A DNA stretch of 35,603 nt from positions 1-35,603 of the forward strand of contig JAHIKF010000008.1 of assembly GCA_018897875.1 (NCBI GenBank), in the 5' to 3' direction. A program made the position numbers and the translations under genes. Positions 4,741 through 35,400 of this stretch are shown here, piece after piece (position 1 is the stretch's first letter; every line of letters starts with the position of its first letter). The DNA comes from Pseudomonadota bacterium. GTDB taxonomy: Bacteria > Desulfobacterota > Desulfobaccia > Desulfobaccales > 0-14-0-80-60-11. Under the pieces are notes generated by a model, which was not told the DNA's origin, ran no database searches, and saw only the letters and a program-made list of their open reading frames with translations.

Positions 4741-4927
4741 TCGCCGAGAATCGGGTAGGCCCGAGAATTGAGTGCGAAAATAAGATTTCTTCAAAAAAAT
4801 GTGTTATCTTGTGCCCGTACTGGTCCCTACGAGAAGAACTGGCTTCGATAAAAGGGTCGGTTAGGAGCCTCCCCTCGGGCCAAGAGGTCCAAAAAACCTC
4901 GTTGGGACAGAAACAGCTATGGACGCG
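4741..4927 (+). promoter_or_regulatory. Left copy of the duplicated operon leader, with a sigma54-like -24/-12 core
   Basis: It is similar to the reverse complement of 35227-35400. The 18-nt block CGAGAAGAACTGGCTTCG (4830-4847) and the 22-nt block TTGGGACAGAAACAGCTATGGA (4902-4923) are identical in both copies, with 54 vs 53 nt between them. The core TGGGAC-N-..-AGCT has GG(4904-5)-N10-GC(4916-7). The ACP start lies 60 bp downstream. Confidence 0.55.
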
Positions 4928-4986
4928 GCATAATCTCGCCTTAGAAGTTTTACATTGGCCAATTCGAAAAATCAGGATAGACGCAT

Positions 4987-5313
4987 ATGGAGGATCACCT
5001 GAAAAACGGCGCTTCCCGCATAGATAAAGCGCAAAAATCGATCAGTATCCCTGGGCGCGAAGAGATTATTGCCATCCTGAACAAGATTTTGGAAGAGGAC
5101 TTTGAGATCGATCCCTCCATATTGAAGCCTGAGGCCTCCCTCCGTGATGATCTTGACCTCGATAGTTTAGACGGAGTCGACCTCGTAGTCGCCATTGAAA
5201 AGAAGTTTCGATTCCGCGTGGATGAGGAAGAAGCCAGGTCAATTCGCACCTTAAATGATATTTATGAATCCGTAGACCGCCGTCTCCGACAAATCGCCGA
5301 AGAACAGCCCTGA
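4987..5313 (+). CDS. Acyl carrier protein (phosphopantetheine-binding)
   Basis: It has the DLDLDSLDGVDLVVAIE motif containing the Ser attachment site. It is a small acidic helical protein with a ~25-aa N-terminal extension, so the start is uncertain. Confidence 0.85.
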   Translation: MEDHLKNGASRIDKAQKSISIPGREEIIAILNKILEEDFEIDPSILKPEASLRDDLDLDSLDGVDLVVAIEKKFRFRVDEEEARSIRTLNDIYESVDRRLRQIAEEQP

Positions 5314-5354
5314 GTGGCTAATGCATCAATTTAAATTTAGAGTTTAGGCCGAAG

Positions 5355-6323
5355 ATGCAAACCCAAGGTGGTACTTCCCGGCAAATAAATCGCTGGACTG
5401 GTAGGACCAGGGGGGGGTATCTCGGCAACTGGATATTTGTTAATTTACTCCGAGTCGGCGGTCCATGGCTCGGCTATTTCTTTTTAGTTCCAGTAACTTT
5501 CTATTATCTCCTTTTCGCATCTCAGGCTGTCAAGGCATCTCAAACTTATTTACGGCGACTGGGTTATAAGCTCGAGTCCGGGTTTGAGCGGTGGTGGCTC
5601 ACGTACAAGCATTTTTACTCCTTTGGACAAAGCCTCTTGGATCGCATTGCCATCATTGCAGGAAATGCCTCAAGATATGCCTTTGTGTTTGAAGGACAAC
5701 ATCATATAGAAACCGCCTTGGCCGAGGGAAAGGGGGTTCTTATCATCAGCGCTCATTTCGGGAACTGGCAGGCAGCAGCTCATCTTTTAGGCACATTGAA
5801 CGTGCCCGTGCATATTGTTGCTTATGATAACGAGGTGGCGCCTATCAACCAACTCTTTGCCAAGGCCTTAAAGAAAAGGCTTTTTTCTGTTATTTCCCTG
5901 GACAATGACGCTGCCAGTTTAGAGATTATAACCGCATTGAAGCGGGGGGAAATTGTCGCTATGCACGCGGATAGAAGCATCGGTGATAAGCATAGTGTGC
6001 GGCTAAATTTTTTAGGGTCCCCAGCCAATTTCCCTTCCGGTCCTTACACTGTGGCGGCGCTTAGTGGCGCTCCCCTTATCCATACCTTTGCCGTGAGACG
6101 GCAAGTTTGCTCCTATCATCTTTATGCCTATCCTTCCCAGCAGCTGGCTTTTGGCAGTCGCCAGGACCGGCCCAAACAATTGGAGCAATGGGTTTCATTG
6201 TTTGTCCAGCGACTGGAAGCGCATCTAAAAAGTTATCCTTTCCAGTGGTGCAACTTTTATGAGTTCTGGGAAGGACCGCTCTCCCCCTCTTCTTTGAGGA
6301 AAGGACACCTTGAGAAAGAATAA
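5355..6323 (+). CDS. LpxL/HtrB-like lysophospholipid (lipid A-type) acyltransferase family protein (ApeD-like)
   Basis: It has N-terminal TM segments and an ISAHFGNWQ motif (HxxxxD/E-type acyltransferase box). Its length and architecture match LPLAT/LpxL-family members found in Ape-type clusters. Confidence 0.8.
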   Translation: MQTQGGTSRQINRWTGRTRGGYLGNWIFVNLLRVGGPWLGYFFLVPVTFYYLLFASQAVKASQTYLRRLGYKLESGFERWWLTYKHFYSFGQSLLDRIAIIAGNASRYAFVFEGQHHIETALAEGKGVLIISAHFGNWQAAAHLLGTLNVPVHIVAYDNEVAPINQLFAKALKKRLFSVISLDNDAASLEIITALKRGEIVAMHADRSIGDKHSVRLNFLGSPANFPSGPYTVAALSGAPLIHTFAVRRQVCSYHLYAYPSQQLAFGSRQDRPKQLEQWVSLFVQRLEAHLKSYPFQWCNFYEFWEGPLSPSSLRKGHLEKE

Positions 6324-7647
6324 AGTCTTACTGATTTCTCCTAATACGGAAACGGCTCCCATGCCTGTTTATCCGCTCTCCCTGGCGAGGCTGGCCAGGG
6401 CGGTTGAAACCAGAGGAGATCAGGTCAGGCAATTTGACCTTCTGGTTCATGGGAACCATCAGTTGCCTGGAGTTCTGCAAGAGTATCAGCCTAATCTGGT
6501 AGCCCTCTCGCTACGCAACCTTGATAATCTCGACACCACGGCCTATCGCTCTTACCTCTCGAGTTATCGGGAAATTATGAACATTATCTGCTCGCATACC
6601 CAGGCCCCCGTGGTCTTGGGAGGTAGTGGCTTTTCCCTGCTGCCCCACGAGTTGCTCCAGCGTTTGGATGGCAACCTCGGGGTAATCGGGCCGGGAGAGG
6701 GAGCCTTGAGCGCCATTCTTCAGGCGCTGGATGAAGGTGCAAGTTCCTTTCCCCAGATTCTTAACGGCACTGAATACAATGATGGCGCTTTTCAGAGCCG
6801 GCATGAACCGGAATTGGTGGAATACTATTGGCGCTTTGGTGGCATGATTGGCCTTCAAACCAAGAGAGGTTGTCCTCGTCACTGTTCCTACTGCACTTAC
6901 CCTCTGATCGATGGCAACCGAACCAGGTATGCTGAAATACCTGCGTTAGTAGAGGAGATCGAACTCCTGGTCCGGAAAATGGGAGTAACCTATTTTTACT
7001 TTGTTGATTCGGTCTTTAACCAGGACCGAGAGCATGAGTTGGCGTTCGCCGAGGAAATTCTCAGGCGCGATCTGGCGATTAGATGGTGTGCCTTTTTTGC
7101 CCCCTCCGGACTTGACCGGGAATATCTGAAAGTTCTTAAGAAAAGTGGGCTCACCCACGTGGAATTCGGAACTGAGGCCATGTGTGACCGAATGCTCTCT
7201 TCCTATAAAAAAGGATTCAACACTGCAGAGGTTGTCCACAATTCCAGCCTGGCCAATGAACTCGGGCTTCATGTTTGCCACTATCTTCTCTTCGGCGGGC
7301 CGGGGGAGGCGCCGGATACCGTCCGGGAGACCTTGACCCATGCAAGGAAGCTTTCAGATTGCGTATTCTTCCCTTTCGTGGGGGTGCGGATTTACCCCGG
7401 TACAGACGTATACTTGCAGGCCTTGAATGAAAATCAGGTTCAGGTGGATAGCGATTACTTTGCTCCCATATTTTACAATCCAGAGGGCTTTGCACGCGAG
7501 GCCATTTGGGAAATGTTGCGCCGCGAGACCGAAGGTTTGACTAACTGGCTCTTCCCGTCTAAGTATGAAGACATCAGCAGAATCTTGAAACGGTTGCGGC
7601 AGCGAGGATTGAAAGGTCCGCTCTGGGAGTATTTGCTGCAAAACTAA
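6310..7647 (+). CDS. B12-binding-domain radical SAM protein (class B rSAM)
   Basis: The N-terminus is a Rossmann-like B12-binding region (KVLLISPNTE...VALSLRNLDN). A CxxxCxxC cluster motif, RGCPRHCSYCTYP, lies at 6871-6894. The TTG start overlaps the upstream stop by 14 nt. Confidence 0.88.
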   Translation: MRKNKVLLISPNTETAPMPVYPLSLARLARAVETRGDQVRQFDLLVHGNHQLPGVLQEYQPNLVALSLRNLDNLDTTAYRSYLSSYREIMNIICSHTQAPVVLGGSGFSLLPHELLQRLDGNLGVIGPGEGALSAILQALDEGASSFPQILNGTEYNDGAFQSRHEPELVEYYWRFGGMIGLQTKRGCPRHCSYCTYPLIDGNRTRYAEIPALVEEIELLVRKMGVTYFYFVDSVFNQDREHELAFAEEILRRDLAIRWCAFFAPSGLDREYLKVLKKSGLTHVEFGTEAMCDRMLSSYKKGFNTAEVVHNSSLANELGLHVCHYLLFGGPGEAPDTVRETLTHARKLSDCVFFPFVGVRIYPGTDVYLQALNENQVQVDSDYFAPIFYNPEGFAREAIWEMLRRETEGLTNWLFPSKYEDISRILKRLRQRGLKGPLWEYLLQN

Positions 7648-7652: not shown

Positions 7653-8087
7653 TTGAAAGATTTGAACTTTCAACTGGAAGAACTTCTGCCGCATCGACAC
7701 CCCATGCTGATGCTGGATAGCATTCTTGAGGCCAGCACTGGCCGCCTGTTGGCGGAAAAGGTTTTTCAGCCTGATGATTATGGAGTGTCAGAGGGCCACG
7801 TTCTGGCAGGCGCACTTATCGAAACCATGGCTCAGGCTGTGGCTGCCATTCAGGGTTTGGCGGCGGCATCTCGGGGAGACCTGCCTCCTAAAGGGATGCT
7901 GGTAGGCGTGGAAGGACTTACGGTGTTGGCGCCGGTGAATTTAGGTCGGCACCTCGGAATTCTCGTGGAGATCACTCGACAATTGCGTCCCTTTATCATG
8001 GCTGACGGTTCCATTTTTCAGGACGGAACTTTAATAGCCAAAGGGTGTCTAAAGTTTTTCGTCGAGGGCGGCCCCAATGAGGCTTAG
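7653..8087 (+). CDS. Hotdog-fold 3-hydroxyacyl-ACP dehydratase (ApeI-like)
   Basis: It has the LPHRHPMLMLD N-terminal motif typical of ApeI/FabA-Z-like dehydratases, and its size of 144 aa fits a hotdog fold. Confidence 0.8.
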   Translation: MKDLNFQLEELLPHRHPMLMLDSILEASTGRLLAEKVFQPDDYGVSEGHVLAGALIETMAQAVAAIQGLAAASRGDLPPKGMLVGVEGLTVLAPVNLGRHLGILVEITRQLRPFIMADGSIFQDGTLIAKGCLKFFVEGGPNEA

Positions 8088-8544
8088 ACGAGGCCGCAGA
8101 CCCAAAGGTAGGTACCTGGAACACCAGGTTCCAGTCCGGGTCAGATTCAATGAAGTGGATTCTCTAAGCATTGTTTGGCACGGGCATTTCCTCAAATATT
8201 TTGAAGATGGCCGTTGTGGCTTTGGGGAGCGCTACGGCATCGGTTATTTGGACCTGCTCAAAGCCGGGCTCTTGGTTCCCGTGGTTCACGCCTCCTGCGA
8301 CCATTTTGAGCCAGCCAGGTTTGGCGATGAATTAATCGTCACCACCAGGCTCTATGAACTGGAAAGCTCCAAGATTTTCTATTATTATGAGGTGAGCCGG
8401 GCATCCGATGGCTCCATCCTGGCTGCCGGCAGGACTATCCAGGCCTTCCTGGACCAGGAACTTAACCTTATTCTCACCTTGCCCGACTATATGAGGTCAT
8501 TCTACGAGCGCTGGAAAGACCACATGCTGGTGTCCGATGGCTGA
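8077..8544 (+). CDS. YbgC/4HBT-family acyl-CoA/ACP thioesterase (ApeK-like)
   Basis: It has VRVRFNEVDSLSIVWHGHFLKYFE (the catalytic Asp region of 4HBT-class thioesterases). The ATG overlaps the upstream gene by 11 nt. Confidence 0.85.
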   Translation: MRLRRGRRPKGRYLEHQVPVRVRFNEVDSLSIVWHGHFLKYFEDGRCGFGERYGIGYLDLLKAGLLVPVVHASCDHFEPARFGDELIVTTRLYELESSKIFYYYEVSRASDGSILAAGRTIQAFLDQELNLILTLPDYMRSFYERWKDHMLVSDG

Positions 8545-9721
8545 ACCTTGCGCAATCATAGGTCTGGACCTGATAAATGCCCTGGGGGCAGGCCCGGATG
8601 CGGTTTGGGACGAGATGATGGCATATACTTGCGGTATCCGGCCTCTTAATCGTTTCGACCACGGTAGATACCGGTCCGATATGGCCGCGGAGATCCCCGG
8701 GCCCTTGCTGGCCCAACTTCGGGATGAGGCGGGGGAAAGGCATTTCTCATTAGCATACAGCATAGCCAGACGCGCGGTCCATGGAGCCTTGGAAGCAGCA
8801 TTTGGGGAACAGAGAAGCAACACCCCTCGCCGGGTAGGCCTGGTGTTGGCCACGACCAAGGGGGATATCCCGGAGTTTGAACGCCAGGTCCAGAACCGGG
8901 AAGTTCCCGCCAAAGGACGCTACAATCCTTACCTTCTGGCCCTGGAACTGGCTCGAGACCTGAAGCTTGAGGGTCCGGTGCTGGCAGTTTCAGGGGCGTG
9001 TGCTACCGGACTCCTGGCAATGATCCATGCCGTTCGCCTGGTCCAAAGGGGGGGCGCGGAAGCGGTAGTAGCTGTGGGAGTAGACGTTCTGTCGGATTTT
9101 GTCCTCTCCGGTTTTAGCAGCGTTGGCGCTCTGGCCCCTGAACCATGCCGCCCATATGACGAAAAGCGAAACGGCCTTTCCCTGGGTGAAGGTGCCGGCG
9201 CGGTAGTCCTATCGCCCCGGGGAGCTTTCCCTCAAAAGGAATTGGCTTTGATCAGCGGTTGGGGAGTTGCTAATGACGCCCGGCACATTACCGCCCCTTC
9301 GCCCACCGCCAACGGTTTGATCCAGGCCCTGCGTCAGACCATGGCTATGGCCTGCTTAGAAGTGGACGAAGTGCATTACCTCAACGCTCACGGCACCGGC
9401 ACCATTTATAATGACGCCATGGAGGCCAGGGCAATTCACCAGGTTTTTGGCGAATCCCCGCCGCCAGTAAGTTCCATGAAAGGATATTTCGGACATACCC
9501 TGGGTGCTGCAGGTATAATCGAGGCCGTTTTAACGGTCGTAGCGTTGAGGCGCAAGACTGTTCCCGCCTCCCTTGGCCTGGAACACCCAGGGGCAGACAT
9601 CCCCATTCAGCCTCTAAGAACTCACCTCCACCGAACCCCCTTGACCCATGCCCTTACCATTAAAAGCGGCTTCGGTGGCATTAACGTGGCCTTGTCCCTA
9701 AGCGCCTTGCCTTTGCTATGA
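8537..9721 (+). CDS. Beta-ketoacyl-ACP synthase (KS, catalytic)
   Basis: A Cys-His-His triad context is present: AVSGACATGLLA, NAHGTGT, GYFGHTLGAAG. Confidence 0.92.
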   Translation: MAEPCAIIGLDLINALGAGPDAVWDEMMAYTCGIRPLNRFDHGRYRSDMAAEIPGPLLAQLRDEAGERHFSLAYSIARRAVHGALEAAFGEQRSNTPRRVGLVLATTKGDIPEFERQVQNREVPAKGRYNPYLLALELARDLKLEGPVLAVSGACATGLLAMIHAVRLVQRGGAEAVVAVGVDVLSDFVLSGFSSVGALAPEPCRPYDEKRNGLSLGEGAGAVVLSPRGAFPQKELALISGWGVANDARHITAPSPTANGLIQALRQTMAMACLEVDEVHYLNAHGTGTIYNDAMEARAIHQVFGESPPPVSSMKGYFGHTLGAAGIIEAVLTVVALRRKTVPASLGLEHPGADIPIQPLRTHLHRTPLTHALTIKSGFGGINVALSLSALPLL

Positions 9722-10549: not shown

Positions 10550-10807
10550 ATGCATCAACTTATAAGCGATTTAAAGGTAAAAATTGTTGATATTCTGAAT
10601 TTGGAAGATGTCTCCCCAGAAGACATTGACGAGGCTGCGCCTCTTTTTGGAGAAGGCTTGGGGTTAGATTCTTTGGATGCCCTTGAATTAGTGGTACTGG
10701 TGGAAAAAGACTACGGTATTAAGATCACCGATATCGAAGTAGGACGGCAGGCTTTTGCTTCCGTCAATACGCTGGCCCGGTTTATCCTTGAAAAACAGGG
10801 GAAATAA
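10550..10807 (+). CDS. Acyl carrier protein
   Basis: It has the GLGLDSLDALELVVLVE phosphopantetheine attachment motif and is 85 aa long. Confidence 0.92.
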   Translation: MHQLISDLKVKIVDILNLEDVSPEDIDEAAPLFGEGLGLDSLDALELVVLVEKDYGIKITDIEVGRQAFASVNTLARFILEKQGK

Positions 10808-12036
10808 TGTCCTCCCGCATCATCGTCACCGGCATGGGTGTTGTCTCCGCCCTGGGCTGGACGCCGACCGCGATCTGGCAAGCTATGGAAGCAGGTTATA
10901 GCGGCCTTGGACCCTTGACCCTGTTCGCCTCCCCCCGCTGCGGACATTTCCCGGTGGGGCAGGTCCAGGGTGACCCAGCTCAGTCCAGCGGCCTGAGCCG
11001 GGGCTCCCGCAGCGACCATCTTGCGGCCTACGCCGCCAGTATGGCCTTTTTGGATGCCGGGTTAGACAAGGTTCCTGCCACCATCAGGAAAAGCATCGGC
11101 CTGGTTCTGGGTGGCACCACTGGCGGGATGCTGGACACCGAGTCTTTCTTCTTGAGAGTAGTCCGGGAAGGTTTCGTTGAAGGGTCCCTGCTGCGGCACC
11201 ACGAATGTTGCCACCCAGCCAATGCCACAGCTGAACTTCTGGGGCTCAATGGCTTCCGTGCTACTCAATCCACCGCTTGCAGCTCGGGACTTATGGCTAT
11301 TGCCACTGCCTGTGACGTCCTTAAAGCTGGTGAAGCCGAAATCATGCTGGCTGGAGGAGTAGACTCTTTAACCAGGCTCACTTTAAATGGTTTCGCCTCT
11401 TTGCTGATAATTGCCCCTGATGGCTGTCGTCCTTTCGATGCCAGACGCACCGGCATGAGCCTGGGGGAAGGAGCTGCGGTCCTGGTCTTGGAAAGGGAAG
11501 AAACGGCCTTGGCAAGGAAGGCGCCCATGCTGGCTGAAATAGGTGGATTCGCCCATACTTGTGAGGCTCATCATCCTACTGCACCCACCCCTGATGGTGC
11601 CGGAATCTACCAGGCTATGGCCTTGGCCTTGCAGCGCGCCGGTCTCACCCCGGCCGACGTGGATTATGTCAATGCTCATGGCACCGGCACCATCGACAAC
11701 GACCTGGCCGAAGGACGGGCCTTGAGCCGCCTGTTTGGTGAGGCGCCCCCCCCCATCTCATCTACCAAGCGCTTTTTCGGACACACCCTGGGTGCCGCCG
11801 GGGCCATCGAGACCGTGGTGTGCATTTTAGCCTTGCAGAATCAAAGGGTGCCAGGAACTCTTGGACTGCTCCACCCCGATCCGAAGATACCCATCAAACC
11901 GCTGCTTGCCCCCGTGAGCGCCACAGTCAAAACCGCGCTCAATAACTCTCTGGGCTTCGGGGGGGCCTGCTCCTCCTTGGTTATCGGCCAGGTGGGCTTT
12001 GGAAGGAATGGAGCCGTGCAAGATGACCGACCCTGA
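10807..12036 (+). CDS. Beta-ketoacyl-ACP synthase (FabF-like, catalytic)
   Basis: Active-site contexts are QSTACSSGLMAIA, NAHGTGT and FFGHTLGAAG. A TAATG overlap links it to the upstream ACP. Confidence 0.92.
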   Translation: MSSRIIVTGMGVVSALGWTPTAIWQAMEAGYSGLGPLTLFASPRCGHFPVGQVQGDPAQSSGLSRGSRSDHLAAYAASMAFLDAGLDKVPATIRKSIGLVLGGTTGGMLDTESFFLRVVREGFVEGSLLRHHECCHPANATAELLGLNGFRATQSTACSSGLMAIATACDVLKAGEAEIMLAGGVDSLTRLTLNGFASLLIIAPDGCRPFDARRTGMSLGEGAAVLVLEREETALARKAPMLAEIGGFAHTCEAHHPTAPTPDGAGIYQAMALALQRAGLTPADVDYVNAHGTGTIDNDLAEGRALSRLFGEAPPPISSTKRFFGHTLGAAGAIETVVCILALQNQRVPGTLGLLHPDPKIPIKPLLAPVSATVKTALNNSLGFGGACSSLVIGQVGFGRNGAVQDDRP

Positions 12037-13159
12037 CCGCGACGCGCTGGCCATCCTGGGCTGCGGCTCCATTCGCCCTGATAGAAACCTGGAACTGTTG
12101 CCTTTGCCGGCTGAGATGGGGGGAGGGGCGGTCTACGCCCACCTGTGCCCCCAATCCCTGGGCAAGGGAGTGATTCCCTCGGGGGTTTATAGAAAGGTGG
12201 GGCGAGCTCAGAAGATGGTGCTGCTGGCCGCACATAAGGCTCTGGAGGAATTCCCGCTCTCCCCATCGGCTCAGGATCAATCTGCGGTGTGCCTGGGGAC
12301 CGGGTTTGGCGAACTGGGAGAGACCTTGCTTTTCCTGGAAAACCTGGTGCGCCTTGAGGAGCGGGAGCCCAAGCCGACCCGGTTCGCCAACTCGGTTCAC
12401 AATTCCCTGGCTTCCCAGGTGGCGATTAATTTCGGCCTCAAAGGCGAAAACCATACCCTTACCCAGGGACCGATATCCTTCGAATTGGCCCTGTGGCAGG
12501 CCGCAGTGTTGCTGCAAACCGGCCGGGCTGGCCATGTTTTGGTCTGCGGGGTCGATGAACTCACGCCTTTCCTTGGCTTTCTCGGGGTCGAGTGCGGGTT
12601 TTGGGGCAAAGAGGATCCCCCTGACCTTCAGGAGATAGAAAGAACCGGCCACAACCACCGGCCCCGCCCCGGAGAAGGGGCGGCCGCTTTCGTGCTGGGA
12701 CTCAGAGGTGCGGCTCCTGCAAAAGGCCTTCTTCCCTGTGTTCATACCATCAAAGTGCAGCCCTTGGAATTGCGGCAGGGGCAGATTATTGATCCGATGG
12801 CGGAACTAAAGTTCGTAATGGATGCCCTTGCCGATAAGGGCGTCTCCCTCGGGAACCTCGACCTCATTATCCTTGGGGCTAATTGCTCGGGCCAGTTGGA
12901 GACGCTGTATCAACCAATATTACAGCTTATTTTTCAGGATATTAGGAAAGAGATTGGCGTTATCTCTTACAAGACTTTATGGGGCGAATTTTCCACCACC
13001 CCGGCACTGGGTCTGGGCCTGGCGGTGGACATCCTCCGGACCGGGAAGATTCCTCCCTGGGTTATTCCTGAGAAAAAGCCTCCTCCGGTTCTTAAGAATA
13101 TCCTCATGTACCAGGTGTCGCCCCTGGGGTTCCATAGTTTGTGCCTGGTAAGGATATGA
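12023..13159 (+). CDS. KS-like chain-length-factor-type protein (no active-site Cys)
   Basis: It has a thiolase-like N-terminal half (FANSVHNSLASQVAINFGLKGENHTLTQGPISFELAL) without the catalytic Cys/His/His. I prefer ATG 12023 because GGAG lies 9 nt upstream. The track ORF begins at TTG 11999. Confidence 0.7.
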   Translation: MTDPDRDALAILGCGSIRPDRNLELLPLPAEMGGGAVYAHLCPQSLGKGVIPSGVYRKVGRAQKMVLLAAHKALEEFPLSPSAQDQSAVCLGTGFGELGETLLFLENLVRLEEREPKPTRFANSVHNSLASQVAINFGLKGENHTLTQGPISFELALWQAAVLLQTGRAGHVLVCGVDELTPFLGFLGVECGFWGKEDPPDLQEIERTGHNHRPRPGEGAAAFVLGLRGAAPAKGLLPCVHTIKVQPLELRQGQIIDPMAELKFVMDALADKGVSLGNLDLIILGANCSGQLETLYQPILQLIFQDIRKEIGVISYKTLWGEFSTTPALGLGLAVDILRTGKIPPWVIPEKKPPPVLKNILMYQVSPLGFHSLCLVRI

Positions 13160-13938: not shown

Positions 13939-13942
13939 TTTA

Positions 13943-15381: not shown

Positions 15382-15394
15382 ATCAAAGGAAATC

Positions 15395-28625: not shown

Positions 28626-30115
28626 GAGGTTTCTTCCTTGATCTTGTTTATGAGATAGTTGCGACCCAAAATGGCAGTGCCGGTATAAACCCCGCTGATC
28701 AGCGCCCCCATGACTCCTGGCTGGACAATGCTCTGCCCGGCTAAAAACAAGTTTTTGACTTTCGTTTCGGTGCTAAGCTGGGCATGCCTGAAGTTGCTGG
28801 CCGATTTAATAATACCATAAGCCGTACCCCAGGGTGTCAGGGTATAGTCCCGGAAGGTAAGGGGGGTACAGGCGTCCACCATCTTCAGGGATGGCGCCTG
28901 CTCTGGCCAGTGCTCCTGCAAGGTGTCCAGGATGCGCCTGGCCAGGGAACGCTTTGCGGCTTGGTAGGCTTCGGAGCGTTCCCCTCTTCGGGTCAGCTCA
29001 AAAGGTGTCATCTCTCCCGGAGCTATCCCCACCAAAGCAGTTACCGCATATTCGCGGTTGGCTTCTTGGGGCATGGCGCAGCAATAGATCATGCTGGGCC
29101 TCTGGGAAAGGGAAACTAATTTTTGGTGATATTGCGCTTCCGTGTCCCAGCTATTGTAGATAAAGGTATCACACTGGACCAGGGTACAATCAGGGTGCCC
29201 CCAACTGAGCGCCAGGGCAAAAGCGCCGAAGGTGTCCTGCGTATCTTCCAGTCTGTGCCTGAAGGCGGGGCGGAAGGAGCCGGGCGGGCAGAGGGTGAGG
29301 ATCTGGCGGGGATGGCCCGTAAAGATCACGAGGTCTGTCGGAATGTATTCCGCATTTGCCAGCACCACGCCTTCGACTCGCCCCCCGCTGGCCGAGATAT
29401 TGGTCACCAGGGCGTTACAGCGAACTTCACCGCCATGGGCCAGTAAGCTTTTGACAAAAGCTTCCGCCAGAGGTGTGGCACACTCGTCGACCCGCCACGA
29501 ACTATTAAGAAACGAGTCCATGACCAGGAAATGAGTGTGCAGCGGGCATTCACTCGGGGGAATCCCATAGAGCGGATTGCTGGCAGAGAGAATCCCTTTA
29601 AGTTCCCGGGAGCAGTTCAAGTGGTCCAGGTAGGAAGCCAGAGATATGCTTTCCAGAATCGGCCCCGACCTCTCAGATTCGTTCAACAGGTTATAAAGAG
29701 GAAACTGGGAAACCAGGCGATTCATATCCGTGAAGAACTGATCGATTGCCACTTTCTCCCGGGGAAAATATTGGTGCAGGCGCTCGCGAAAAGCATCCTG
29801 GCCGATGGGAACCCTGAATCGTAAGCCGGGAAAGGAGTATTCTTCAAATCCGTCTGCGGACATACGCTTCAGGCTCAGTTTATCCCGAACCTCAAGATAC
29901 TGGAAGTACCGACTCAGGATCTGTCCATCGTCCAGGGAACCAAGACGGTGAACCCCGGTGGGAAAGACCAGGGCTTGGCGGCGAAAATGCTGCATGAGCC
30001 CCCCTGGCTGGGAGTGTTGCTCCAATACGAGGACCCGCCGTCCTTCCTTGGCGAGGATGATGGCTACGGTCATCCCGCTAACCCCGGAGCCGATTATGAC
30101 CGCGTCGTAGCGCAT
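28622..30115 (-). CDS. NAD(P)/FAD-dependent oxidoreductase of the phytoene desaturase (CrtI) family
   Basis: It has the dinucleotide fold YDAVIIGSGVSGMTVAIILAKEGRRVLVLEQHSQPGG and the C-terminal CrtI-type motif LFLAGQSIVQPGVMGALISG. An ATGA-type 4-nt overlap links it to the downstream KS. Confidence 0.85.
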   Translation of the reverse strand: MRYDAVIIGSGVSGMTVAIILAKEGRRVLVLEQHSQPGGLMQHFRRQALVFPTGVHRLGSLDDGQILSRYFQYLEVRDKLSLKRMSADGFEEYSFPGLRFRVPIGQDAFRERLHQYFPREKVAIDQFFTDMNRLVSQFPLYNLLNESERSGPILESISLASYLDHLNCSRELKGILSASNPLYGIPPSECPLHTHFLVMDSFLNSSWRVDECATPLAEAFVKSLLAHGGEVRCNALVTNISASGGRVEGVVLANAEYIPTDLVIFTGHPRQILTLCPPGSFRPAFRHRLEDTQDTFGAFALALSWGHPDCTLVQCDTFIYNSWDTEAQYHQKLVSLSQRPSMIYCCAMPQEANREYAVTALVGIAPGEMTPFELTRRGERSEAYQAAKRSLARRILDTLQEHWPEQAPSLKMVDACTPLTFRDYTLTPWGTAYGIIKSASNFRHAQLSTETKVKNLFLAGQSIVQPGVMGALISGVYTGTAILGRNYLINKIKEETS

Positions 30116-33100
30116 CCTGATTCCTTCTTGAAGACCAAGACAATATTGGAGCCGCGGCCTAGGTCTGGAACCTCCGCAAGAAACTTGACTCCTTGCTTGG
30201 TAAAGGCGTTTATAAAAAACTCCTTGGTCTGAAAATACAGGCCGGTCCCTCTTTGGTTATGCCCCACCTTAACCCCGAAATATTCTCCCATCCTTACCGC
30301 CAGATGGCCAAATGAACGAGTGCTAAAAGCATCTCTAAATACAATTGATCCCCCTTCACGGAGGGCCTGGCAGGCTTTGGCGATTACCTCCAATTGCCTG
30401 CCCTCGGGCCAATAGTGGAGGGAATCAATCAACAACACCACGTCTACCGGAGGATATTCCCATTCCAGAAAATTTTCCCTATGGAATTCTATATTGGGGA
30501 AAGCCAGGGCCACTCCCTGACTGACCCTAAACTTTCTCTCGTCAAAGTCAATGCCCAGTATGTGTCTGTGCCTCGATTTACGGGCCAAAATTGCCGCCAT
30601 CAGCCCATAGCCAGATCCCAGGTCCAGAACGGTTCCTTCTTGGGGCACCAGGTCGTTTATACCCTTATAGATGGGATCCAATCTTAATTTCCAGGAAATA
30701 TAACTCTCTACATAACTGCCACGGTAATTATAAAGCGATCTGATGTTATGCCAGAAGGACGGGCCATCCTGGGATAGTTGCCAATCCTGGAGTTCATAGC
30801 GCTGCAGCATTTTCTTGACATGCCGGGAAAGTTCTCGGGCTTCCAGGGAATAATCGAACTGGTCCCTGGTTACCCGGTCCAGCACCCGCACCACCGTCTG
30901 GTGGTCTCCCACCCAAAAGGCCTTGGGAGGAACGCAATCCTTGGAATTGGAAATCAATACCGGTAAGATATCGCTTTCAGTTTCCAGCGCCAGCTTGAAC
31001 GCTCCCACGTGGAAGCGCCTGAGTTGGCCATCCGGGGAACGGCTGCCCTCCGGGAAAATCATGATGGAAATCCCTTTTTCCAGGCATTCCCGGCTCTGTT
31101 GTAAAATTCCCTGATATGATTCTTGATCCACAAGTATATAGCCAGCATCCTGGATCAGGGGTCCGATCACCGGCGCATCCCAAACCCATTGTTTAACCAC
31201 CATCACCATCTCCACCGGGAGGGCAAGCATCAGCATGATGTCAAAGGAGGATTGGTGATTACTGATGATAACGGACGGCCGAGCAAATTTATCTGGCTCC
31301 GCTCCGAGGTATATGCGCCGGCTGTCCAAGTAAGGAATATGTCGCACCAGTGCTGCCGCCACCATATGGAGATAACGTCGGCAAAACTTGCGTCTGGCTT
31401 CCGAGTCCTGGGGATAGCGCAGTCTCATGACCCAGCGAAGGCAATAGCTATATAGGAAGGCAGCCCCTACAAGATAAACTGCGGCCCAGGCGGCTCCCGC
31501 CATTGTCTTCAGAGAAGGAGTCCCATGGCTCCCGTCTTGCCACAAGAGCCGTTTCATGTAGGATGGCACAATCACCAAAGCCGCCGCCACGCTGGCAAGC
31601 ATGGAGATCAGTCCCGTGAGACCCATAGAAAATAGCATGCTGTGCCTGGCAAATACCAGGCTGAAAAAACCGCCTGCGCTGGTTAAAGCGCAAATTATGA
31701 CCGCCCCGCACATGAGGGACTCATGGCCACCCTGGCTCCGATACTGATTCAGGGCGCTGCTCATCAGGAAGATGCTGAAGTCCACCCCCACCCCAAAAAT
31801 AAAAACCACGAAGAGGAGACTCATAAGATTGATGCGGACGCCCAAAAAGCCCATCATTCCCATGGTGACGACCACGCTGGCCAGAACCGGCAGCAGATTC
31901 ACTATTACCAGTTCCGCCCGCCGGAGAAAGAGGAACAGGACGAGAGTGATGGCCCCGAGAGCAATAAGCAGCAGTTTGTGGAACTCCCCTTTGACCAGGG
32001 TGCCCATATGTTCCACAAAGGCTTTCTTATCCACCACTATGGCCCCCGGTACCGCCGCCGCGATCCTGGTTTCGATCTCGGGCAGTCGGGAACGGTCCTC
32101 CAGGAAAAAAGAGCTCATTACCAGGCTCTCCGTTCCGTCAGTCACCACCTTGCTGGCCATCAGGTACTTTAGTGGCGTGGACTGAAAGTCTTTAAGGGTG
32201 ACAGGTGGAGGCGTTTGATCCAACGCATCAAAAAAGGGTCCGAAGATTTTCGAATTAAACCCCTGGGCTTCTGCCTCCTTTTCAAGACTTGACCTCAGGG
32301 CACTGCGGCGTGAAGCTGACCAGAATTCTTTCCATCTCTGGAGATTGTCCTCCTGGGTCCTGAGCGCGGGAAGGATGGGAGAGATTGACCCGAACCGGAC
32401 AATCTTTCCGGCCGCCATGAGCTCCTTTAACACCTCGAACACGCGGTCATTTGCTTCCAGGGCTTCTTCAAGGTTGGCGCCGTGCACAACCGTCGCGGTT
32501 GGAGAAAAACTACCCCATACTTTCAGTATCTTTTCTGAGTCCCTTTGGTTTTCCGGATTAAGGTGGCTTAACCGGGAGACGTCCCCCTCGAACTGTAGCC
32601 AGGTGATCCCGTAAGCGCCCAGCGCCAGCAAACTTACCCCCGCAATCAGGGTCCAGCGGCGATAATTATCCCTCCATTCTCGAAACCGGAAGCAAAAAGT
32701 ATCCAGGGGAAAAACAGGTCTGGATACTTTACCGGGGCGGTCGGGGATAAAATATCGTAAACCCAAGATGGCAAAAAGCATGGCGCCGATAATCCCGAGA
32801 CTGGCAAACCATCCCATCTGCCGCTGACCTGGCAGGGACATGAAAGTCAGACCGGCGAATCCGGCAATAGTGGTGGCCGCGCCCATCACCAATGGAAATA
32901 CCAGGGCGCGCAGTACCTGTTTCCGCTTCGTCCTCCCGGTTTCCACGTTGTCCAGGTGGTAGAGAAGTAAAACGCCATAATCCACCGCAATCCCTACCAG
33001 CACTGTGCCGCAGCCCAGGGCGATAGCAGAAAAGAATGGGTCCCAGAGAGCTATTACCCCGGCCGCCATGGTCAGACCAAATGCGGCTGGCAAAAAGATC

Positions 33101-33972
33101 AGAAGCACGAACAGTCTGCGGCGAAAGACCAAGAAGCCAAGCAACAACAGGCCAAGCGACATGGAAATGGTGGCCCGGGTAACGTCACCTTTGATGGTTA
33201 AAGAATTATCGAGGGTCGATATATGACTGCCGGTAAAACTTATTCCGACCCGACTCCTGGGGGAGACCTCGACCGACTCGCGGCGCGCCTGGTTAAGCAG
33301 TTCCACCAGCTTCTCTCCCCGTTTGGTATCCACTGCCGGGAAGTCTGGAAGGGCGATCATAAGAATATGCTTGCCATCCTCGTTCCACAAACGGCCGGCT
33401 TGCATCTGGGTTCCGGCAGAATCCGCCCGTAAGATTTCCAGCTTTTGTAAAACCAGGTCATCAAGGTTTAGCGGATCCCGGCTCACCCGGCCGCTCCAGA
33501 ATACTCCGGCGGGCTCGAGCAGACGGCGCTTGGCAGCCGCAAGCAACCGGCGAACCTCCTCATCCTTCAGGCGAGAGCCATAACGAGCCATATCAGTCTC
33601 CCCCGCCAGACGGGCCTTTCTGGAACTCAGTAAGACGATAAGGTTGCCGAATTGATCGCCGGAAATTTTATAAAAAATATTGGCGAAAATCCCAGAACGG
33701 TGCAACCTCTCGTAAAAGGCATCGGCCACGGATTCGGCATCCTGTTGGTCTCCTGGCTTTGCCGACTCGGATTCGATATCCACATAGACTGCATCCAACA
33801 CATGGAAGCGCTGGGCTACGAACAGGTATCGGTTGAATATCGGGTCGGTATCCGGCAGCATGGACGTAAGCCGTTCGTCCAGATGCAGTCGGCTAGCTGA
33901 AATCAGACTCAAAATTAAGAGGGTACCCAGAGCGAGGATGGCTCCCCAGCGTCGCCGATTTTCAGGTTTCAT
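30094..33972 (-). CDS. Triple-fusion protein: MMPL/RND-type lipid exporter + PlsC-type (LPLAT) acyltransferase + class I SAM methyltransferase
   Basis: The MMPL part has two 6-TM bundles with GIAVDYGVLLLYH and GVGVDFSIFLMSS. The PlsC part has motifs NHQSSFD (31240-31260) and FPEGSRS (31036-31056). The SAM-binding motif I is VLDLGSGYG (30604-30630). All lie in one uninterrupted frame. I prefer ATG 33972 (AGGAGAGGA Shine-Dalgarno). The track ORF starts at 34017. Confidence 0.88.
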   Translation of the reverse strand: MKPENRRRWGAILALGTLLILSLISASRLHLDERLTSMLPDTDPIFNRYLFVAQRFHVLDAVYVDIESESAKPGDQQDAESVADAFYERLHRSGIFANIFYKISGDQFGNLIVLLSSRKARLAGETDMARYGSRLKDEEVRRLLAAAKRRLLEPAGVFWSGRVSRDPLNLDDLVLQKLEILRADSAGTQMQAGRLWNEDGKHILMIALPDFPAVDTKRGEKLVELLNQARRESVEVSPRSRVGISFTGSHISTLDNSLTIKGDVTRATISMSLGLLLLGFLVFRRRLFVLLIFLPAAFGLTMAAGVIALWDPFFSAIALGCGTVLVGIAVDYGVLLLYHLDNVETGRTKRKQVLRALVFPLVMGAATTIAGFAGLTFMSLPGQRQMGWFASLGIIGAMLFAILGLRYFIPDRPGKVSRPVFPLDTFCFRFREWRDNYRRWTLIAGVSLLALGAYGITWLQFEGDVSRLSHLNPENQRDSEKILKVWGSFSPTATVVHGANLEEALEANDRVFEVLKELMAAGKIVRFGSISPILPALRTQEDNLQRWKEFWSASRRSALRSSLEKEAEAQGFNSKIFGPFFDALDQTPPPVTLKDFQSTPLKYLMASKVVTDGTESLVMSSFFLEDRSRLPEIETRIAAAVPGAIVVDKKAFVEHMGTLVKGEFHKLLLIALGAITLVLFLFLRRAELVIVNLLPVLASVVVTMGMMGFLGVRINLMSLLFVVFIFGVGVDFSIFLMSSALNQYRSQGGHESLMCGAVIICALTSAGGFFSLVFARHSMLFSMGLTGLISMLASVAAALVIVPSYMKRLLWQDGSHGTPSLKTMAGAAWAAVYLVGAAFLYSYCLRWVMRLRYPQDSEARRKFCRRYLHMVAAALVRHIPYLDSRRIYLGAEPDKFARPSVIISNHQSSFDIMLMLALPVEMVMVVKQWVWDAPVIGPLIQDAGYILVDQESYQGILQQSRECLEKGISIMIFPEGSRSPDGQLRRFHVGAFKLALETESDILPVLISNSKDCVPPKAFWVGDHQTVVRVLDRVTRDQFDYSLEARELSRHVKKMLQRYELQDWQLSQDGPSFWHNIRSLYNYRGSYVESYISWKLRLDPIYKGINDLVPQEGTVLDLGSGYGLMAAILARKSRHRHILGIDFDERKFRVSQGVALAFPNIEFHRENFLEWEYPPVDVVLLIDSLHYWPEGRQLEVIAKACQALREGGSIVFRDAFSTRSFGHLAVRMGEYFGVKVGHNQRGTGLYFQTKEFFINAFTKQGVKFLAEVPDLGRGSNIVLVFKKESGCATTRS

Positions 33973-34176
33973 GTTCCTCTCCTGGGACCGGGCAAAGCCC
34001 AAGAAGTTGCGGCGCATAGGGGAGCGACGGCAGGAAGCCGATAGATTGGGGTACGTTGGCGGTAGTTGAAGCGGAAAAATATTGCTTTAAGGCCATGAGC
34101 TGGCCCCGTCTACCTCAGAGGGATTTAGGCATTCGGAGAGGTTGAAAGGAAAAATTGCCATTACTTCCCATTTGAA

Positions 34177-34980
34177 CTAAGTATTTCGACCAGTTCCCTT
34201 GCCGTAGGCACATGGCATTTTCTGAATTATCTTTTGGAATAACAGAGAAATAATCAAAACGGAAACCAACATGAAATCTCGAAAAGGACGAAAATGCGAC
34301 TTACTGCCTGGGACATAGTTTACAGCAATGGGAACTTCCCGTATCGGGGTGCCCGCCCACAGGGCCATTACCAATACTTCAATTTCAAAATCATATTTTT
34401 GCTTTTTCAAGGGAAGTTCAAGAATGGAAGCCAGGGGATAGGCCCGGAACCCGCATTGAGAATCACCCACCCACTTTTGTGTGAGAACCCATACCCAGAA
34501 ATTGGAATGGGCCCGCAAGAGCCGGCTTTTTAGTCGCTTACCTCCTCCGGCCAGATTACGCCGCCCAACGATCAGAGCGTCTGGGTGGTTTTCCATTTCC
34601 TCAAGAAATTTCGACAAGTCCACTGCCAGATGTTGCCCGTCTCCGTCCATGGTTATCGTATAATTATAATTAGAGTGAGCGGCAAACCGAAGGCCACTGA
34701 CTAAAGCCGCACCCTTCCCCAAGTTGCGTTCATGGGTAATTACCGTAATACCCGGAATCGCCGACAAGACCTTGTCGGCCCCATCGGTTGAGCCATCATT
34801 CACTACTATCAGGTCCGGTGTTACTTTCAGAATATCCTTTATCACGTCACCCATGGTGAGTTGATTGTTGTACGTCGGCACAACGATACAAAATGATGAA
34901 GGGGATCTGTTGATATCGTTTGGCGGGGATGCCCTCTCACCCTCGGGGGTTGAGCGTTTCACTTCCTCAGGTGGCCTCAT
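34177..34980 (-). CDS. Family 2 glycosyltransferase (ApeG-like / Dpm1-like)
   Basis: It has FCIVVPTYNN, VVNDGSTDG and TMDGDGQH motifs typical of GT2 (GT-A fold), plus a C-terminal hydrophobic helix. Confidence 0.88.
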   Translation of the reverse strand: MRPPEEVKRSTPEGERASPPNDINRSPSSFCIVVPTYNNQLTMGDVIKDILKVTPDLIVVNDGSTDGADKVLSAIPGITVITHERNLGKGAALVSGLRFAAHSNYNYTITMDGDGQHLAVDLSKFLEEMENHPDALIVGRRNLAGGGKRLKSRLLRAHSNFWVWVLTQKWVGDSQCGFRAYPLASILELPLKKQKYDFEIEVLVMALWAGTPIREVPIAVNYVPGSKSHFRPFRDFMLVSVLIISLLFQKIIQKMPCAYGKGTGRNT

Positions 34981-35206
34981 AGATCACTTTCCCATACTTG
35001 TTGGCTTGATAGGATAGGCCCCCGATGACGCCCTTACTTTCCTCGAAGCGCTCCGTGGCCATGACGATAATGTCGAAGGGATGCTTCAAACCGTTTAGGG
35101 CCAGCCGCCGTGTGCCGAGAAATGCAGCCAGTCGGAGAGCCAGATGTCGAAATTCGGCGCGTCCGGTTCGATGAGCGGGGAAGGGAAACGGAGACACTCT
35201 GACCAC
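34967..35206 (-). pseudogene. Possible remnant of a minimal nucleotidyltransferase (MNT/Pol-beta-like) gene
   Basis: The C-terminal half, HPFDIIVMATERFEESKGVIGGLSYQANKYGKVIYEA, fits the tail pattern of small nucleotidyltransferases (P.D.IV.T.EEF.......L..A...GKVLYE). The expected GS..RG...SD.D catalytic region is degenerate (FPAHRTGRAEFRHLAL), and there is no ATG (GTG start only). Confidence 0.35.
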
Positions 35207-35226
35207 CGAGCCTTTCCTCGGCTCTA

Positions 35227-35400
35227 CGCATCCATAGCTGTTTCTGTCCCAAGGAGGTTTTGCAGCCTCTTTGGCCGAGTAAAATCTCTCAAACGGTCCT
35301 CTTCACGAAGCCAGTTCTTCTCGCAGGTGGCAAAATAGCACAAATTAGGGCGGAAAGTCAATTTTCCCCAGATTTCGAGCATACCAATCCCTCGGCGATC
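35227..35400 (-). promoter_or_regulatory. Right copy of the duplicated operon leader with a sigma54-like -24/-12 core
   Basis: Its reverse complement aligns with 4741-4927. The 18-mer (35306-35323) and the 22-mer (35231-35252) are identical to the left copy. The GG-N10-GC core lies at 35236-35251 on the minus strand, pointing into the minus-strand operon. Confidence 0.55.

Follow-up and report, generated by a model that had tools for sequence, protein, structure and literature searches.

The contig JAHIKF010000008.1 (35,603 nt, assembly GCA_018897875.1), which belongs to an uncultured metagenome-assembled genome (MAG) of the Desulfobacterales type and was analysed over its whole length (hereafter, the window), carries at ~4.99-35.4 kb a single biosynthetic locus of ~27 conserved genes arranged in two convergent operons. 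The cluster is a member of a cross-phylum orphan family of type II fatty-acid synthase/polyketide synthase (FAS/PKS) lipid clusters of anaerobes, the marker of which is a B12-binding radical SAM enzyme (B12-rSAM) of family TIGR04072. This family combines a synthesis and export kit similar to that of aryl polyene (APE) clusters with the TIGR04072 B12-rSAM, a CrtI-like flavoprotein, a NodB-type deacetylase and a C45 acyltransferase-like protein. The lineage-specific part of the locus, in which its novelty lies, consists of a protein of the 2-hydroxyacyl-CoA dehydratase/benzoyl-CoA reductase family (HGD), its ATP-dependent activase, an alpha-only homologue of the NDP-forming acyl-CoA synthetases (ACD-alpha), a GlcD-like oxidase fused to iron-sulfur domains (GlcD-FeS) and outer-membrane proteins. 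On balance, the locus is rather likely to be a lipid cluster of the orphan family to which this lineage has added an HGD unit acting on a thioester of the pathway.

Gene families were assigned by Pfam and NCBIfam scans of every large open reading frame (ORF), which bore out almost all of the gene content, and its placement, proposed in an initial annotation of the contig. The two convergent operons described there also stand; according to the coordinates, most of the junctions between genes are overlaps of 1-40 nt or gaps of <10 nt, instead of the overlaps of 1-22 nt claimed before. The Ralstonia solanacearum megaplasmid cluster (L084) served as the canonical APE reference; other related loci are likewise denoted by L and a number. 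The plus-strand operon (~4.99-19.19 kb) reads as follows:

4987..5313, plus strand: acyl carrier protein 1 (ACP1); PF00550, E 1.3e-8; NF003757, 70.8 bits against a cut-off of 65
5355..6323, plus strand: LpxL/HtrB-like (Lip_A_acyltrans) acyltransferase; PF03279, E 4.5e-23
6310..7647, plus strand: B12-rSAM, the family marker; TIGR04072 rSAM_ladder_B12, full-length, 429.4 bits against a cut-off of 360
7653..8087, plus strand: FabZ/ApeP-like hotdog dehydratase; PF07977
8077..8544, plus strand: 4HBT/YbgC-type thioesterase, ApeK-like; PF13279 and TIGR00051, 33% identical to the Ralstonia APE thioesterase
8537..9721, plus strand: ketosynthase 1 (KS1), Cys-His-His intact in the alignment; PF00109/PF02801
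9718..10539, plus strand: chain-length-factor (CLF)-like partner 1; weak PF00109, Cys replaced by Asp and C-terminal half missing in the alignment
10550..10807, plus strand: ACP2; PF00550; NF006617, 72.9 bits against a cut-off of 70
10807..12036, plus strand: KS2, Cys-His-His intact; Pfam/NCBIfam and alignment
11999..13159, plus strand: CLF-like partner 2; PF13723/PF00109, Cys and His residues both lost in the alignment
13141..13938, plus strand: polysaccharide deacetylase of the NodB type, membrane segment at the N-terminus; PF01522, E 1.3e-32
13814..14698, plus strand: LolA-like periplasmic carrier; PF03548; LolA2_flexi, 99 bits against a cut-off of 125
14695..15381, plus strand: lipoprotein (228 aa), weakly DUF3261/ApeN-like; PF11659 over the full profile length, E 0.075, below the Pfam cut-off; signal peptide and Cys
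15356..15769, plus strand: ApeI-like hotdog dehydratase; PF22818 and PF07977, matching the C-terminal tail of the Ralstonia ApeH-ApeI fusion
15779..17020, plus strand: single-subunit HGD-D (2-hydroxyacyl-CoA dehydratase/benzoyl-CoA reductase family); PF06050, E 8.7e-60, 203 bits
17026..17808, plus strand: ATP-dependent activase of the BcrAD/BadFG/HgdC type; PF01869, E 4.5e-50; TIGR00241, 211 bits against a cut-off of 125
17768..19189, plus strand: ACD-alpha; PF13380/PF13607/PF19045, catalytic His kept, no ATP-grasp domain

The minus-strand operon (35.2 to 19.24 kb) is listed in its own direction of reading:

35207..35603, no strand: non-coding leader/promoter region of the minus operon and right edge of the cluster; AT-rich, no conserved ORF
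34177..34980, minus strand: family 2 glycosyltransferase (GT2), first gene of the operon; PF00535, E 8.2e-24
30094..34017, minus strand: fusion of 1307 aa, MMPL/RND exporter with PlsC-type acyltransferase and SAM methyltransferase; PF03176, PF01553, PF13649
28622..30115, minus strand: CrtI/CrtD-like protein of the FAD amine-oxidase family; PF01593 and TIGR02733/02734, all below cut-off; 49% identical to its counterpart in L083
27402..28625, minus strand: KS4, ApeR-like, Cys-His-His intact; NF006587, 462.9 bits, just under the cut-off of 470; shares 46% identity with the Ralstonia APE KS
25617..27314, minus strand: C45 protein (acyl-CoA:6-APA acyltransferase-like), membrane segment at the N-terminus, TPR at the C-terminus; PF03417; NF040521, 205 bits against a cut-off of 85
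24809..25837, minus strand: FabG/ApeQ-type ketoreductase; FabG models pass; FlxB_rubin_SDR, 338.7 bits against a cut-off of 340
23492..24805, minus strand: KS3, FabB-like, Cys-His-His intact; Pfam/NCBIfam and alignment
20786..23431, minus strand: GlcD-like FAD oxidase of the 2-hydroxyacid dehydrogenase type, fused to a 4Fe-4S dicluster as well as two CCG domains (GlcD-FeS); PF01565, PF02913, PF13183, PF02754
19909..20493, minus strand: small lipoprotein (194 aa); lipobox, 43-74% conserved in L001 and L006
19236..19835, minus strand: PagL-like outer-membrane beta-barrel; PF09411, E 3.2e-18; signal peptide

The inventory thus comprises two ACPs, four KSs with intact Cys-His-His, two Cys-less CLF-like partners, one FabG and three hotdog proteins, namely the FabZ/ApeP-like and ApeI-like proteins and the 4HBT thioesterase; genes for FabD, FabH, FabI and Acc, as well as an enoyl reductase, were not found in the cluster. 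The last two genes of the minus operon, coding for the lipoprotein and the PagL-like barrel, had escaped the initial annotation, which had also treated the MMPL exporter, one acyltransferase and the methyltransferase as separate functions: all three are present, the acyltransferase being of the PlsC type, and they are joined in one polypeptide, a fusion recurring in about 25 protein clusters. GT2 sits ahead of the fusion gene in L088-L090, too. The window GT2 (267 aa) is devoid of the C-terminal DUF2062 present in the ~400-aa GT2 proteins of L089 (8805-10004) and L090 (8809-10014); that of L088 is of the short form.

Several gene boundaries and assignments could be refined. The ACP1 domain begins at residue ~24, so that the true start is probably later than 4987, and the protein is 60-74% identical to the ACP in L081-L083. 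Similarly, the short-chain dehydrogenase/reductase domain of the ketoreductase ORF begins at residue ~103, placing the true start near 25530, while the likely start of the LolA-like ORF is near 13943, giving a signal peptide. The LpxL-like acyltransferase is the counterpart of the C-terminal half of ApeJ and is 30% identical to the product of the 3' half of the Ralstonia 'glycosyltransferase' gene. Orthologues of the FabZ/ApeP-like dehydratase (44-55% identity) carry the ApeP-like domain PF22817, and CLF-like partner 1 is also kept in L082, L083 and L087. The DUF3261-like assignment of the 228-aa lipoprotein, made in the initial annotation, remains a weak one, though the profile is covered in full and the position is conserved: the gene lies between LolA and ApeI in L082, L083 and L086 as well (L087 has a gap there), and its product is 35-47% identical to the L083 and L082 counterparts; a single-sequence AlphaFold model (pLDDT 40) was unusable. 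For the 194-aa lipoprotein, a generic TolB-N/GNA1162/PelC-like fold may be proposed with low confidence (pLDDT 71.5, Foldseek TM about 0.35-0.44). N-terminal signal peptides, lipoboxes or membrane segments were recognized on LolA, both lipoproteins, the PagL-like protein, NodB and C45.

The assignment of the cluster to the TIGR04072 family is based on the B12-rSAM match and on synteny. Elsewhere the core of the family forms one co-directional operon with GT2 at the start and the ApeI-like dehydratase at the end, in the order GT2 - MMPL/acyltransferase/methyltransferase fusion - CrtI-like - KS4 - (C45) - FabG - KS3 - ACP1 - LpxL-like - B12-rSAM - ApeP-like dehydratase - (thioesterase) - (KS1-CLF1) - ACP2 - KS2 - CLF2 - (NodB) - LolA - ~230-aa protein - ApeI-like dehydratase. 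Such single operons are carried by a Planctomycetota MAG (L083/L089), an Elusimicrobia-type contig (L086) and a metagenomic contig (L087); in the window, the single ancestral operon is split and inverted into two convergent halves. The window proteins share 35-69% amino acid identity with those of the Planctomycetota operon (C45 48%, CrtI-like 49%, NodB 43%, 228-aa protein 35%), and over 2300 homologues of the B12-rSAM were retrieved at E<=1e-30. The nearest known relatives are TIGR04072 clusters and not, as the initial annotation had it, the Ape clusters of Escherichia coli and Xenorhabdus, although its picture of an APE-like type II FAS/PKS lipid cluster with envelope-export genes is right; the Ralstonia APE cluster matches window proteins at only 24-49% amino acid identity (KS1 35% to the KS in the ApeO position, FabG 49% to the ApeQ-type ketoreductase); a blastn search of the KS4 gene against all complete Escherichia coli genomes gave no match. 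Among the enzymes listed initially as differences from the Ape set, HGD, the activase, ACD-alpha and GlcD-FeS are indeed lineage-specific, while the B12-rSAM, CrtI-like protein, NodB and C45 are not extras at all, because they form part of the conserved core, with 43-49% identity to the Planctomycetota operon. As to variation within the family, DUF4410 and DUF1207 genes come after ApeI in L086 and L087, and L090, whose fusion protein is 54% identical to that of the window, has an additional cassette upstream of GT2 (3036-8675; ACP, an unknown protein, an FAD oxidoreductase and an AMP-binding enzyme) and a second B12-rSAM at 18449-19897, between C45 and FabG.

Neither the arrangement nor the gene set can be ascribed to accident. 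An independent MAG contig from the window's own species (L001) is colinear over 19.6 kb at 95% nucleotide identity, spanning the convergent junction, and contig L092 is colinear at ~90%, so that the arrangement is not an assembly artefact; the gene set recurs in synteny across several phyla, hence it did not arise by chance.

The core represents a further member of a family that has been noticed in the literature and is uncharacterised. FASII-like clusters of this kind were first described in Kuenenia, with syntenic ones in Desulfotalea psychrophila, Geobacter and Pelobacter (Rattray 2009, PMC2649909), and the K. stuttgartiensis clusters kuste3603-3608 and kuste3335-3352 are candidates for ladderane synthesis (PMC4790861). 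The published clusters hold ACPs, FabZ, canonical and non-canonical FabF, phytoene-desaturase-like, rSAM, methylase and glycosyltransferase genes (PMC2649909; PMC4790861, Table 2). In Desulfobacterota, Planctomycetota and other non-anammox phyla antiSMASH labels such clusters 'ladderane', their function being unknown (PMC9902471), and no experimental product is tied to any of them (PMC10139942; PMC13459092). Our literature search for a characterised product of the family returned nothing relevant, in agreement with the earlier opinion that no characterised pathway covers the cluster. The arylpolyenes celluxanthene and flavoaffinin of anaerobes originate from an unrelated PKS of the type I iterative class.

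The initial annotation had pointed to the absence of a starter-activating enzyme, and our searches uphold it. PF00501 matched no window ORF, no ammonia lyase or chorismate lyase Pfam family was found among the window ORFs, and six-frame tblastn of the window with two AMP-ligases, Ralstonia ApeH, HAL/TAL and an ATP-grasp domain detected none of them, the three AMP-binding queries matching only the ApeI-like tail; the Ralstonia APE cluster, by comparison, carries ApeH, HAL/TAL and ApeG. The operons of L083/L089, L086 and L087, the reading of which began at GT2 or its neighbour and ended at ApeI, likewise lack an AMP-ligase and a lyase, and they have no HGD; an AMP-binding gene lies beside KS genes in L085 and upstream of GT2 in L090. 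As the missing activator is common to the core relatives, an aryl starter is not implied; ordinary priming of the core pathway with malonyl- or acetyl-ACP, of which type II systems are capable, is the most economical interpretation.

The lineage-specific genes deserve separate consideration. The four-gene unit ApeI-HGD-activase-ACD-alpha is complete in L082, L091 and L093; it also occurs in L092, with HGD in two pieces, and all four genes were detected in L006 by tblastn, the ApeI match being at the contig edge. Within five type II lineages that could be read upstream, the HGD gene lies no more than about 50 nt 3' of the ApeI-like dehydratase gene. GlcD-FeS comes after KS3 in L088, L090 and L092 as in the window. 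The split HGD of L092 (3785-5027) was called as two ORFs (160 + 261 aa), owing to a frameshift or sequencing error; the same contig has an extra DUF4410 lipoprotein gene (7323-7913) between ACD-alpha and the PagL-like gene.

A search of the HGD protein against GTDB species genomes yielded >580 relatives at ~60-70% identity, distributed among Desulfobacterota, Planctomycetota/Phycisphaerae, Aminicenantes, Zixibacteria, Anaerolineae, Ignavibacteria and MAGs labelled archaeal, and the neighbourhoods of the best 80 loci were inspected. HGD-D, usually with the activase and a full-length ACD (~693 aa), proved to be a very widespread and slowly evolving module (L002-L080, L096-L172): in 77 of the 80 loci no KS, ACP or rSAM genes flank HGD and its usual partners, of which the activase is present in 71 loci and ACD in 51, and the recurrent neighbours are a PanE/ApbA-type 2-oxoacid reductase (23), AMP-ligase (21), enoyl-CoA hydratase (15), an ACT-domain protein (12) and thiolase (11). 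Judging by these neighbours, the general triad looks like a module converting 2-oxo/2-hydroxyacids to acyl-CoA. In five non-lipid loci a GlcD-FeS homologue adjoins HGD and the activase, with no ACD.

Against this background, the HGDs linked to FAS/PKS genes (window, L001, L006, L082, L091, L093 and L004) constitute one clade, recovered in 100/100 neighbour-joining bootstraps against 39 other triad HGDs, and FAS/PKS genes, of type II or of one type I PKS, adjoin every clade member with readable flanks. Besides L001, five members are in type II lipid clusters, and the ApeI-like gene directly precedes HGD in L082, L091, L092 and L093. The type I case, L004 (99-8717; uncultured Desulfobacterales), codes for a 2192-aa KS-AT-ACP-KR-PS-DH (PfaA-like) synthase followed, with a 14-nt overlap, by HGD and the activase; no ACD was found downstream of them. 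L091 (4964-13869; PPCM01000662) has the order ACP-ApeP-LolA-..-ApeI-HGD-activase-ACD-alpha-B12-rSAM-KAS III, the last being an enzyme type that uses acyl-CoA starters. This locus contains an ABC transporter instead of MMPL, which indicates that the HGD unit travels between lipid-cluster architectures.

The ACD partner differs between the two contexts as well. ACD-alpha corresponds to the alpha part of an NDP-forming acyl-CoA synthetase, with CoA-binding, Succ_CoA_lig and Ligase_CoA domains, and its loop reads AVAFHCGG compared with AVSSHTGG, the His being kept. In lipid contexts ACD is alpha-only (463-473 aa), while all 47 other complete triad-adjoining GTDB ACDs are 683-963 aa long with a fused ATP-grasp_5; about 14 of the 120 nearest ACD protein clusters are alpha-only, and the most divergent of those inspected (56% identity) is in the ApeI-HGD-activase-ACD-alpha unit of L091. 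The catalytic His is kept in all alpha-only ACDs, so that a beta subunit acting in trans is possible. The HCGG loop was rejected as a mark of all alpha-only ACDs, since distant members keep HTGG or HTGS.

The best solved relatives of the window HGD are HadB (3o3m, E 4.6e-43; the alpha subunit of 2-hydroxyisocaproyl-CoA dehydratase), MbdO and BzdO, with whose cluster cysteines C92, C132 and C360 align; three additional cysteines (C43, C204, C303) are kept by the triad family as a whole. One HGD-D gene is present at the window locus and in each of the 80 related loci, which, together with the six conserved Cys, points to a homomeric member of the HAD/BCR family (2-hydroxyacyl-CoA dehydratase/benzoyl-CoA reductase). 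The six cysteines raise the possibility of a second or double-cubane cluster, and dehydratase chemistry is favoured by the gene neighbourhoods. The clade support, the position behind FAS/PKS genes, the alpha-only ACD and the recurrence of GlcD-FeS after KS3 argue that the window copy would be a dedicated paralogue of the widespread 2-hydroxyacid/2-hydroxyacyl-CoA module. Neither the embedded HGD/activase/ACD-alpha/GlcD-FeS module nor the FAS/PKS-associated HGD clade was found in the searched literature, a search for an HGD-type enzyme inside a PKS/FAS cluster giving nothing relevant.

The scheme proposed here interprets the observed gene content, catalytic residues, synteny, export signals and clade structure, each chemical step being deduced from them. 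The acyl chain would be built on the two dedicated ACPs by two KS/CLF heterodimers, two stand-alone KSs, one ketoreductase and the ApeP/ApeI-type dehydratases. As FabD, FabH, FabI and Acc are missing, the system is not a housekeeping FAS and must take malonyl-ACP from one; as there is no enoyl reductase, the chain should be polyunsaturated, in line with the unsaturated chain expected initially. Tailoring of the chain would fall to the B12-rSAM, the methyltransferase domain and the CrtI-like enzyme, GT2 and then NodB would make an amino-sugar acceptor, and the chain would be joined to this acceptor by the LpxL-like, PlsC-like and C45 acyltransferases, with the thioesterase. Transport of the lipid to the outer membrane would be the task of the MMPL fusion, LolA, the DUF3261-like lipoprotein and outer-membrane proteins; an exported, glycosylated/acylated unsaturated lipid, as suggested before, is a fair deduction from the sequence. 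To this pathway the lineage would have added, at the operon ends, the ApeI-HGD-activase-ACD-alpha unit and the GlcD-FeS-CCG dehydrogenase. Most likely, HGD would perform ATP-primed ketyl-radical chemistry on a pathway thioester, for example turning a 2-hydroxyacyl thioester into a 2-enoyl thioester that would serve as a special starter or acyl donor. More tentatively, and with a probability that we put well below even, a distinct single-subunit, six-Cys HGD/BCR subfamily with its own activase may work with both type I and type II FAS/PKS, applying low-potential ketyl-radical chemistry to the growing or priming thioester; it could provide an unusual enoyl (possibly aryl-acryloyl) starter without oxygen, ammonia lyase or adenylation, or else reduce or isomerise a chain of the conjugated polyenoyl type.

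A number of observations weigh against this explanation. One position only is strictly diagnostic for the lipid-linked clade in comparison with general triad HGDs, so that the chemistry of HGD may be unchanged and its presence could be inherited synteny; clade-specific active-site changes were sought, and nothing beyond this position was found. The window HGD departs from the classical dehydratases, which are heterodimeric and have three Cys in each subunit, and a lone gene with six Cys may code for a BCR/double-cubane-type reductase and not a dehydratase. The ATP-grasp (beta) domain is absent from ACD-alpha and from all six frames of the window, hence CoA ligation needs a partner encoded elsewhere. 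In L158 (2472-5112), an alpha-only ACD (464 aa, HTGS loop) adjoins HGD in a non-lipid context, which weakens the idea that alpha-only ACDs are confined to lipid clusters; that locus has a PriA-like gene upstream, membrane proteins downstream and no adjacent activase. C45, NodB, KS1/CLF1 and the thioesterase are each absent from some relatives, and owing to this patchiness the attachment scheme is not universal.

The alternatives differ mainly in the role they ascribe to the HGD module. According to one of them, HGD, the activase, ACD-alpha and GlcD-FeS are a catabolic or fermentative 2-hydroxyacid module placed between lipid operons and having no lipid role. The wide occurrence of the triad without lipid genes (77/80 loci; >580 relatives), the essentially unchanged active-site region of HGD and the position of the added genes at the distal ends of both operons speak for it; nevertheless, we regard it as unlikely, given the 100/100 clade of FAS/PKS-linked HGDs, the tight placement of HGD behind the ApeI-like dehydratase (in L004, the 14-nt overlap with the PS-DH end) and the loss of ATP-grasp specifically in lipid contexts. 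It is still less probable that the locus is a true APE cluster with an aryl starter made by an oxygen- and lyase-independent route. This route would lead from an arylpyruvate to aryl-lactate (GlcD-FeS), on to aryl-lactyl-CoA (ACD-alpha with a beta subunit in trans) and to a cinnamoyl- or coumaroyl-CoA primer (HGD with the activase). The APE-like KS/CLF, ketoreductase, dehydratase and export kit is indeed present, the HGD unit adjoins ApeI, i.e., the spot of the starter ligase ApeH (adjacent or fused) in canonical APE clusters, the enzyme family of HGD includes phenyllactate-type dehydratases, and KAS III comes after the HGD unit in L091. However, there is no sign of an aromatic substrate, the core family in other phyla does without any HGD-type module, neither an ATP-grasp domain nor a CoA-transferase is present, and the type I PKS locus L004 has HGD and the activase without ACD.

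Alternatively, HGD and the activase might be a lipid-modifying reductase of the PlsA/PlsR or BCR/double-cubane type, converting an ester of the finished lipid into a (vinyl) ether or, at the expense of ATP, reducing the conjugated polyenoyl thioester in place of the enoyl reductase that the cluster lacks. Plasmalogen synthase PlsA/PlsR, a member of the BCR/HAD family, does act on lipids (PMC12838417), the three Cys beyond the canonical three fit an extra or double cluster, and HGD comes after the dehydratase step in type I and type II architectures. This alternative is improbable in our view, since no NCBIfam or PDB match to PlsR/DCCP-type proteins rose above noise (double_cubane 50 bits, cut-off 350), CoA thioesters are suggested by the co-conserved ACD-alpha and 2-hydroxyacid chemistry by the neighbours of the general triad. 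A ladderane product, such as has been proposed for the related anammox clusters, is very improbable: the B12-rSAM passes the TIGR04072 'rSAM_ladder_B12' cut-off, and the ACP, FabZ-like, KS, non-canonical KS and CrtI-like genes parallel kuste3603-3608 (PMC4790861), but the host is of the Desulfobacterales type and not an anammox planctomycete, Desulfotalea with a syntenic cluster has no ladderanes (PMC2649909), and the link between cluster and ladderanes is itself unproven (PMC10139942). Hardly any weight can be given to the view that the two halves are unrelated housekeeping fatty-acid genes, an outcome that the initial annotation had named as fatal to its own interpretation. FabF/FabB/FabG/FabZ-like families are present, but other phyla have the two halves combined in a single co-directional operon, FabD, FabH, FabI and Acc are missing, and the CLF-like partners and the export, glycosyl- and acyl-transfer genes do not belong to a housekeeping FAS.

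Outside the genes described, few elements were recognized in the window. Rfam and tRNA scans of the window gave no matches, and a terminator scan of the convergent junction revealed nothing exceeding shuffles. Upstream of the plus operon lies a divergent gene (1463-2977, minus strand) for a sigma-54 enhancer-binding activator; the sigma-54 promoter pattern was matched 32 times (<=2 mismatches) where 18.7 matches were expected, and no match upstream of either operon was convincing. A weak candidate -24/-12-like site at 4614-4629 (plus strand; GGGCAC-N5-TTTCT, 2 mismatches), located ~370 nt upstream of the ACP1 ORF, does not stand out statistically from background. ORFs 4644-5027 (plus strand; N-terminus of low complexity, Gly/Pro-rich) and 34967-35206 (minus strand) have no family match and no homologue in related loci, and are probably not genes. 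The pentapeptide-repeat protein at the left end of the contig (228-677, minus strand) is unrelated to the cluster.

Separating the conserved core from lineage-specific additions by synteny comparison shifts the attention to the latter. Genome-mining tools repeatedly label such clusters 'arylpolyene' or 'ladderane', and they are found in several phyla and in anoxic habitats; the family bears on the biosynthesis of ladderanes and, possibly, of anaerobic polyunsaturated lipids. The HGD module is a surprise for polyketide and fatty-acid enzymology, its functions, like all functions considered here, being deduced from uncultured MAGs. If acyl thioesters of the pathway are indeed the substrates of HGD, the reach of ATP-driven radical (de)hydration or reduction would extend from fermentation and aromatic degradation to lipid and polyketide biosynthesis. 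An HGD subfamily working with FAS/PKS, if real, would bring a new enzymatic logic for anaerobic lipid and polyketide assembly and a handle on the products of non-anammox 'ladderane-like' clusters.

In comparison with known systems, the locus shares with APE clusters (E. coli CFT073 apeA-R, PMC8253772; Ralstonia L084) a KS/CLF pair, an ApeR-like KS, an ApeQ-like ketoreductase, ApeI/ApeP-type dehydratases, two ACPs, an ApeK-like thioesterase, LolA, MMPL, a weakly DUF3261-like protein, a methyltransferase and the lack of an enoyl reductase, as well as ApeD-like and ApeJ-like acyl/glycosyl transferases that are split or fused differently. Unlike them, it is devoid of the acyl-ACP synthetase ApeH, ApeG and an ammonia lyase and possesses a second KS/CLF pair, the B12-rSAM, the CrtI-like protein, C45, NodB and the HGD module. 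Its likeness to flexirubin clusters is limited to the FabG (338.7 bits against the FlxB cut-off of 340) and LolA (99 against 125 for LolA2_flexi), both below cut-off, and the window contains neither DarA/DarB nor a tyrosine ammonia lyase. At the level of gene lists (PMC4790861, Table 2), the cluster resembles the kuste clusters in its TIGR04072-type B12-rSAM, dedicated ACPs, FabZ-like dehydratase, canonical and Cys-less FabF paralogues, CrtI/phytoene-desaturase-like flavoprotein, FabG, GT2 and SAM methyltransferase; it differs in the absence of a phenylacetyl-CoA-ligase-type gene and in the presence of a set of genes forming the core of its own sub-family (C45, NodB, the MMPL fusion, LolA and the DUF3261-like lipoprotein) and of HGD, the activase, ACD-alpha and GlcD-FeS. 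As for the HGD itself, it belongs to the BCR/HAD superfamily like PlsA/PlsR (PMC12838417), from which it differs in domain organisation, with no specific sequence match found. With HadBC/HadI, HgdAB/HgdC, FldBC/FldI and class I benzoyl-CoA reductases it shares an HGD-D domain with canonical cluster Cys and a separate ATP-dependent activase, whereas, in contrast to HadBC, HgdAB and FldBC, it is encoded by a single gene and not by an alpha/beta pair, has three added conserved Cys, resides inside a FAS/PKS operon and has an alpha-only ACD, not a CoA-transferase, as its partner.

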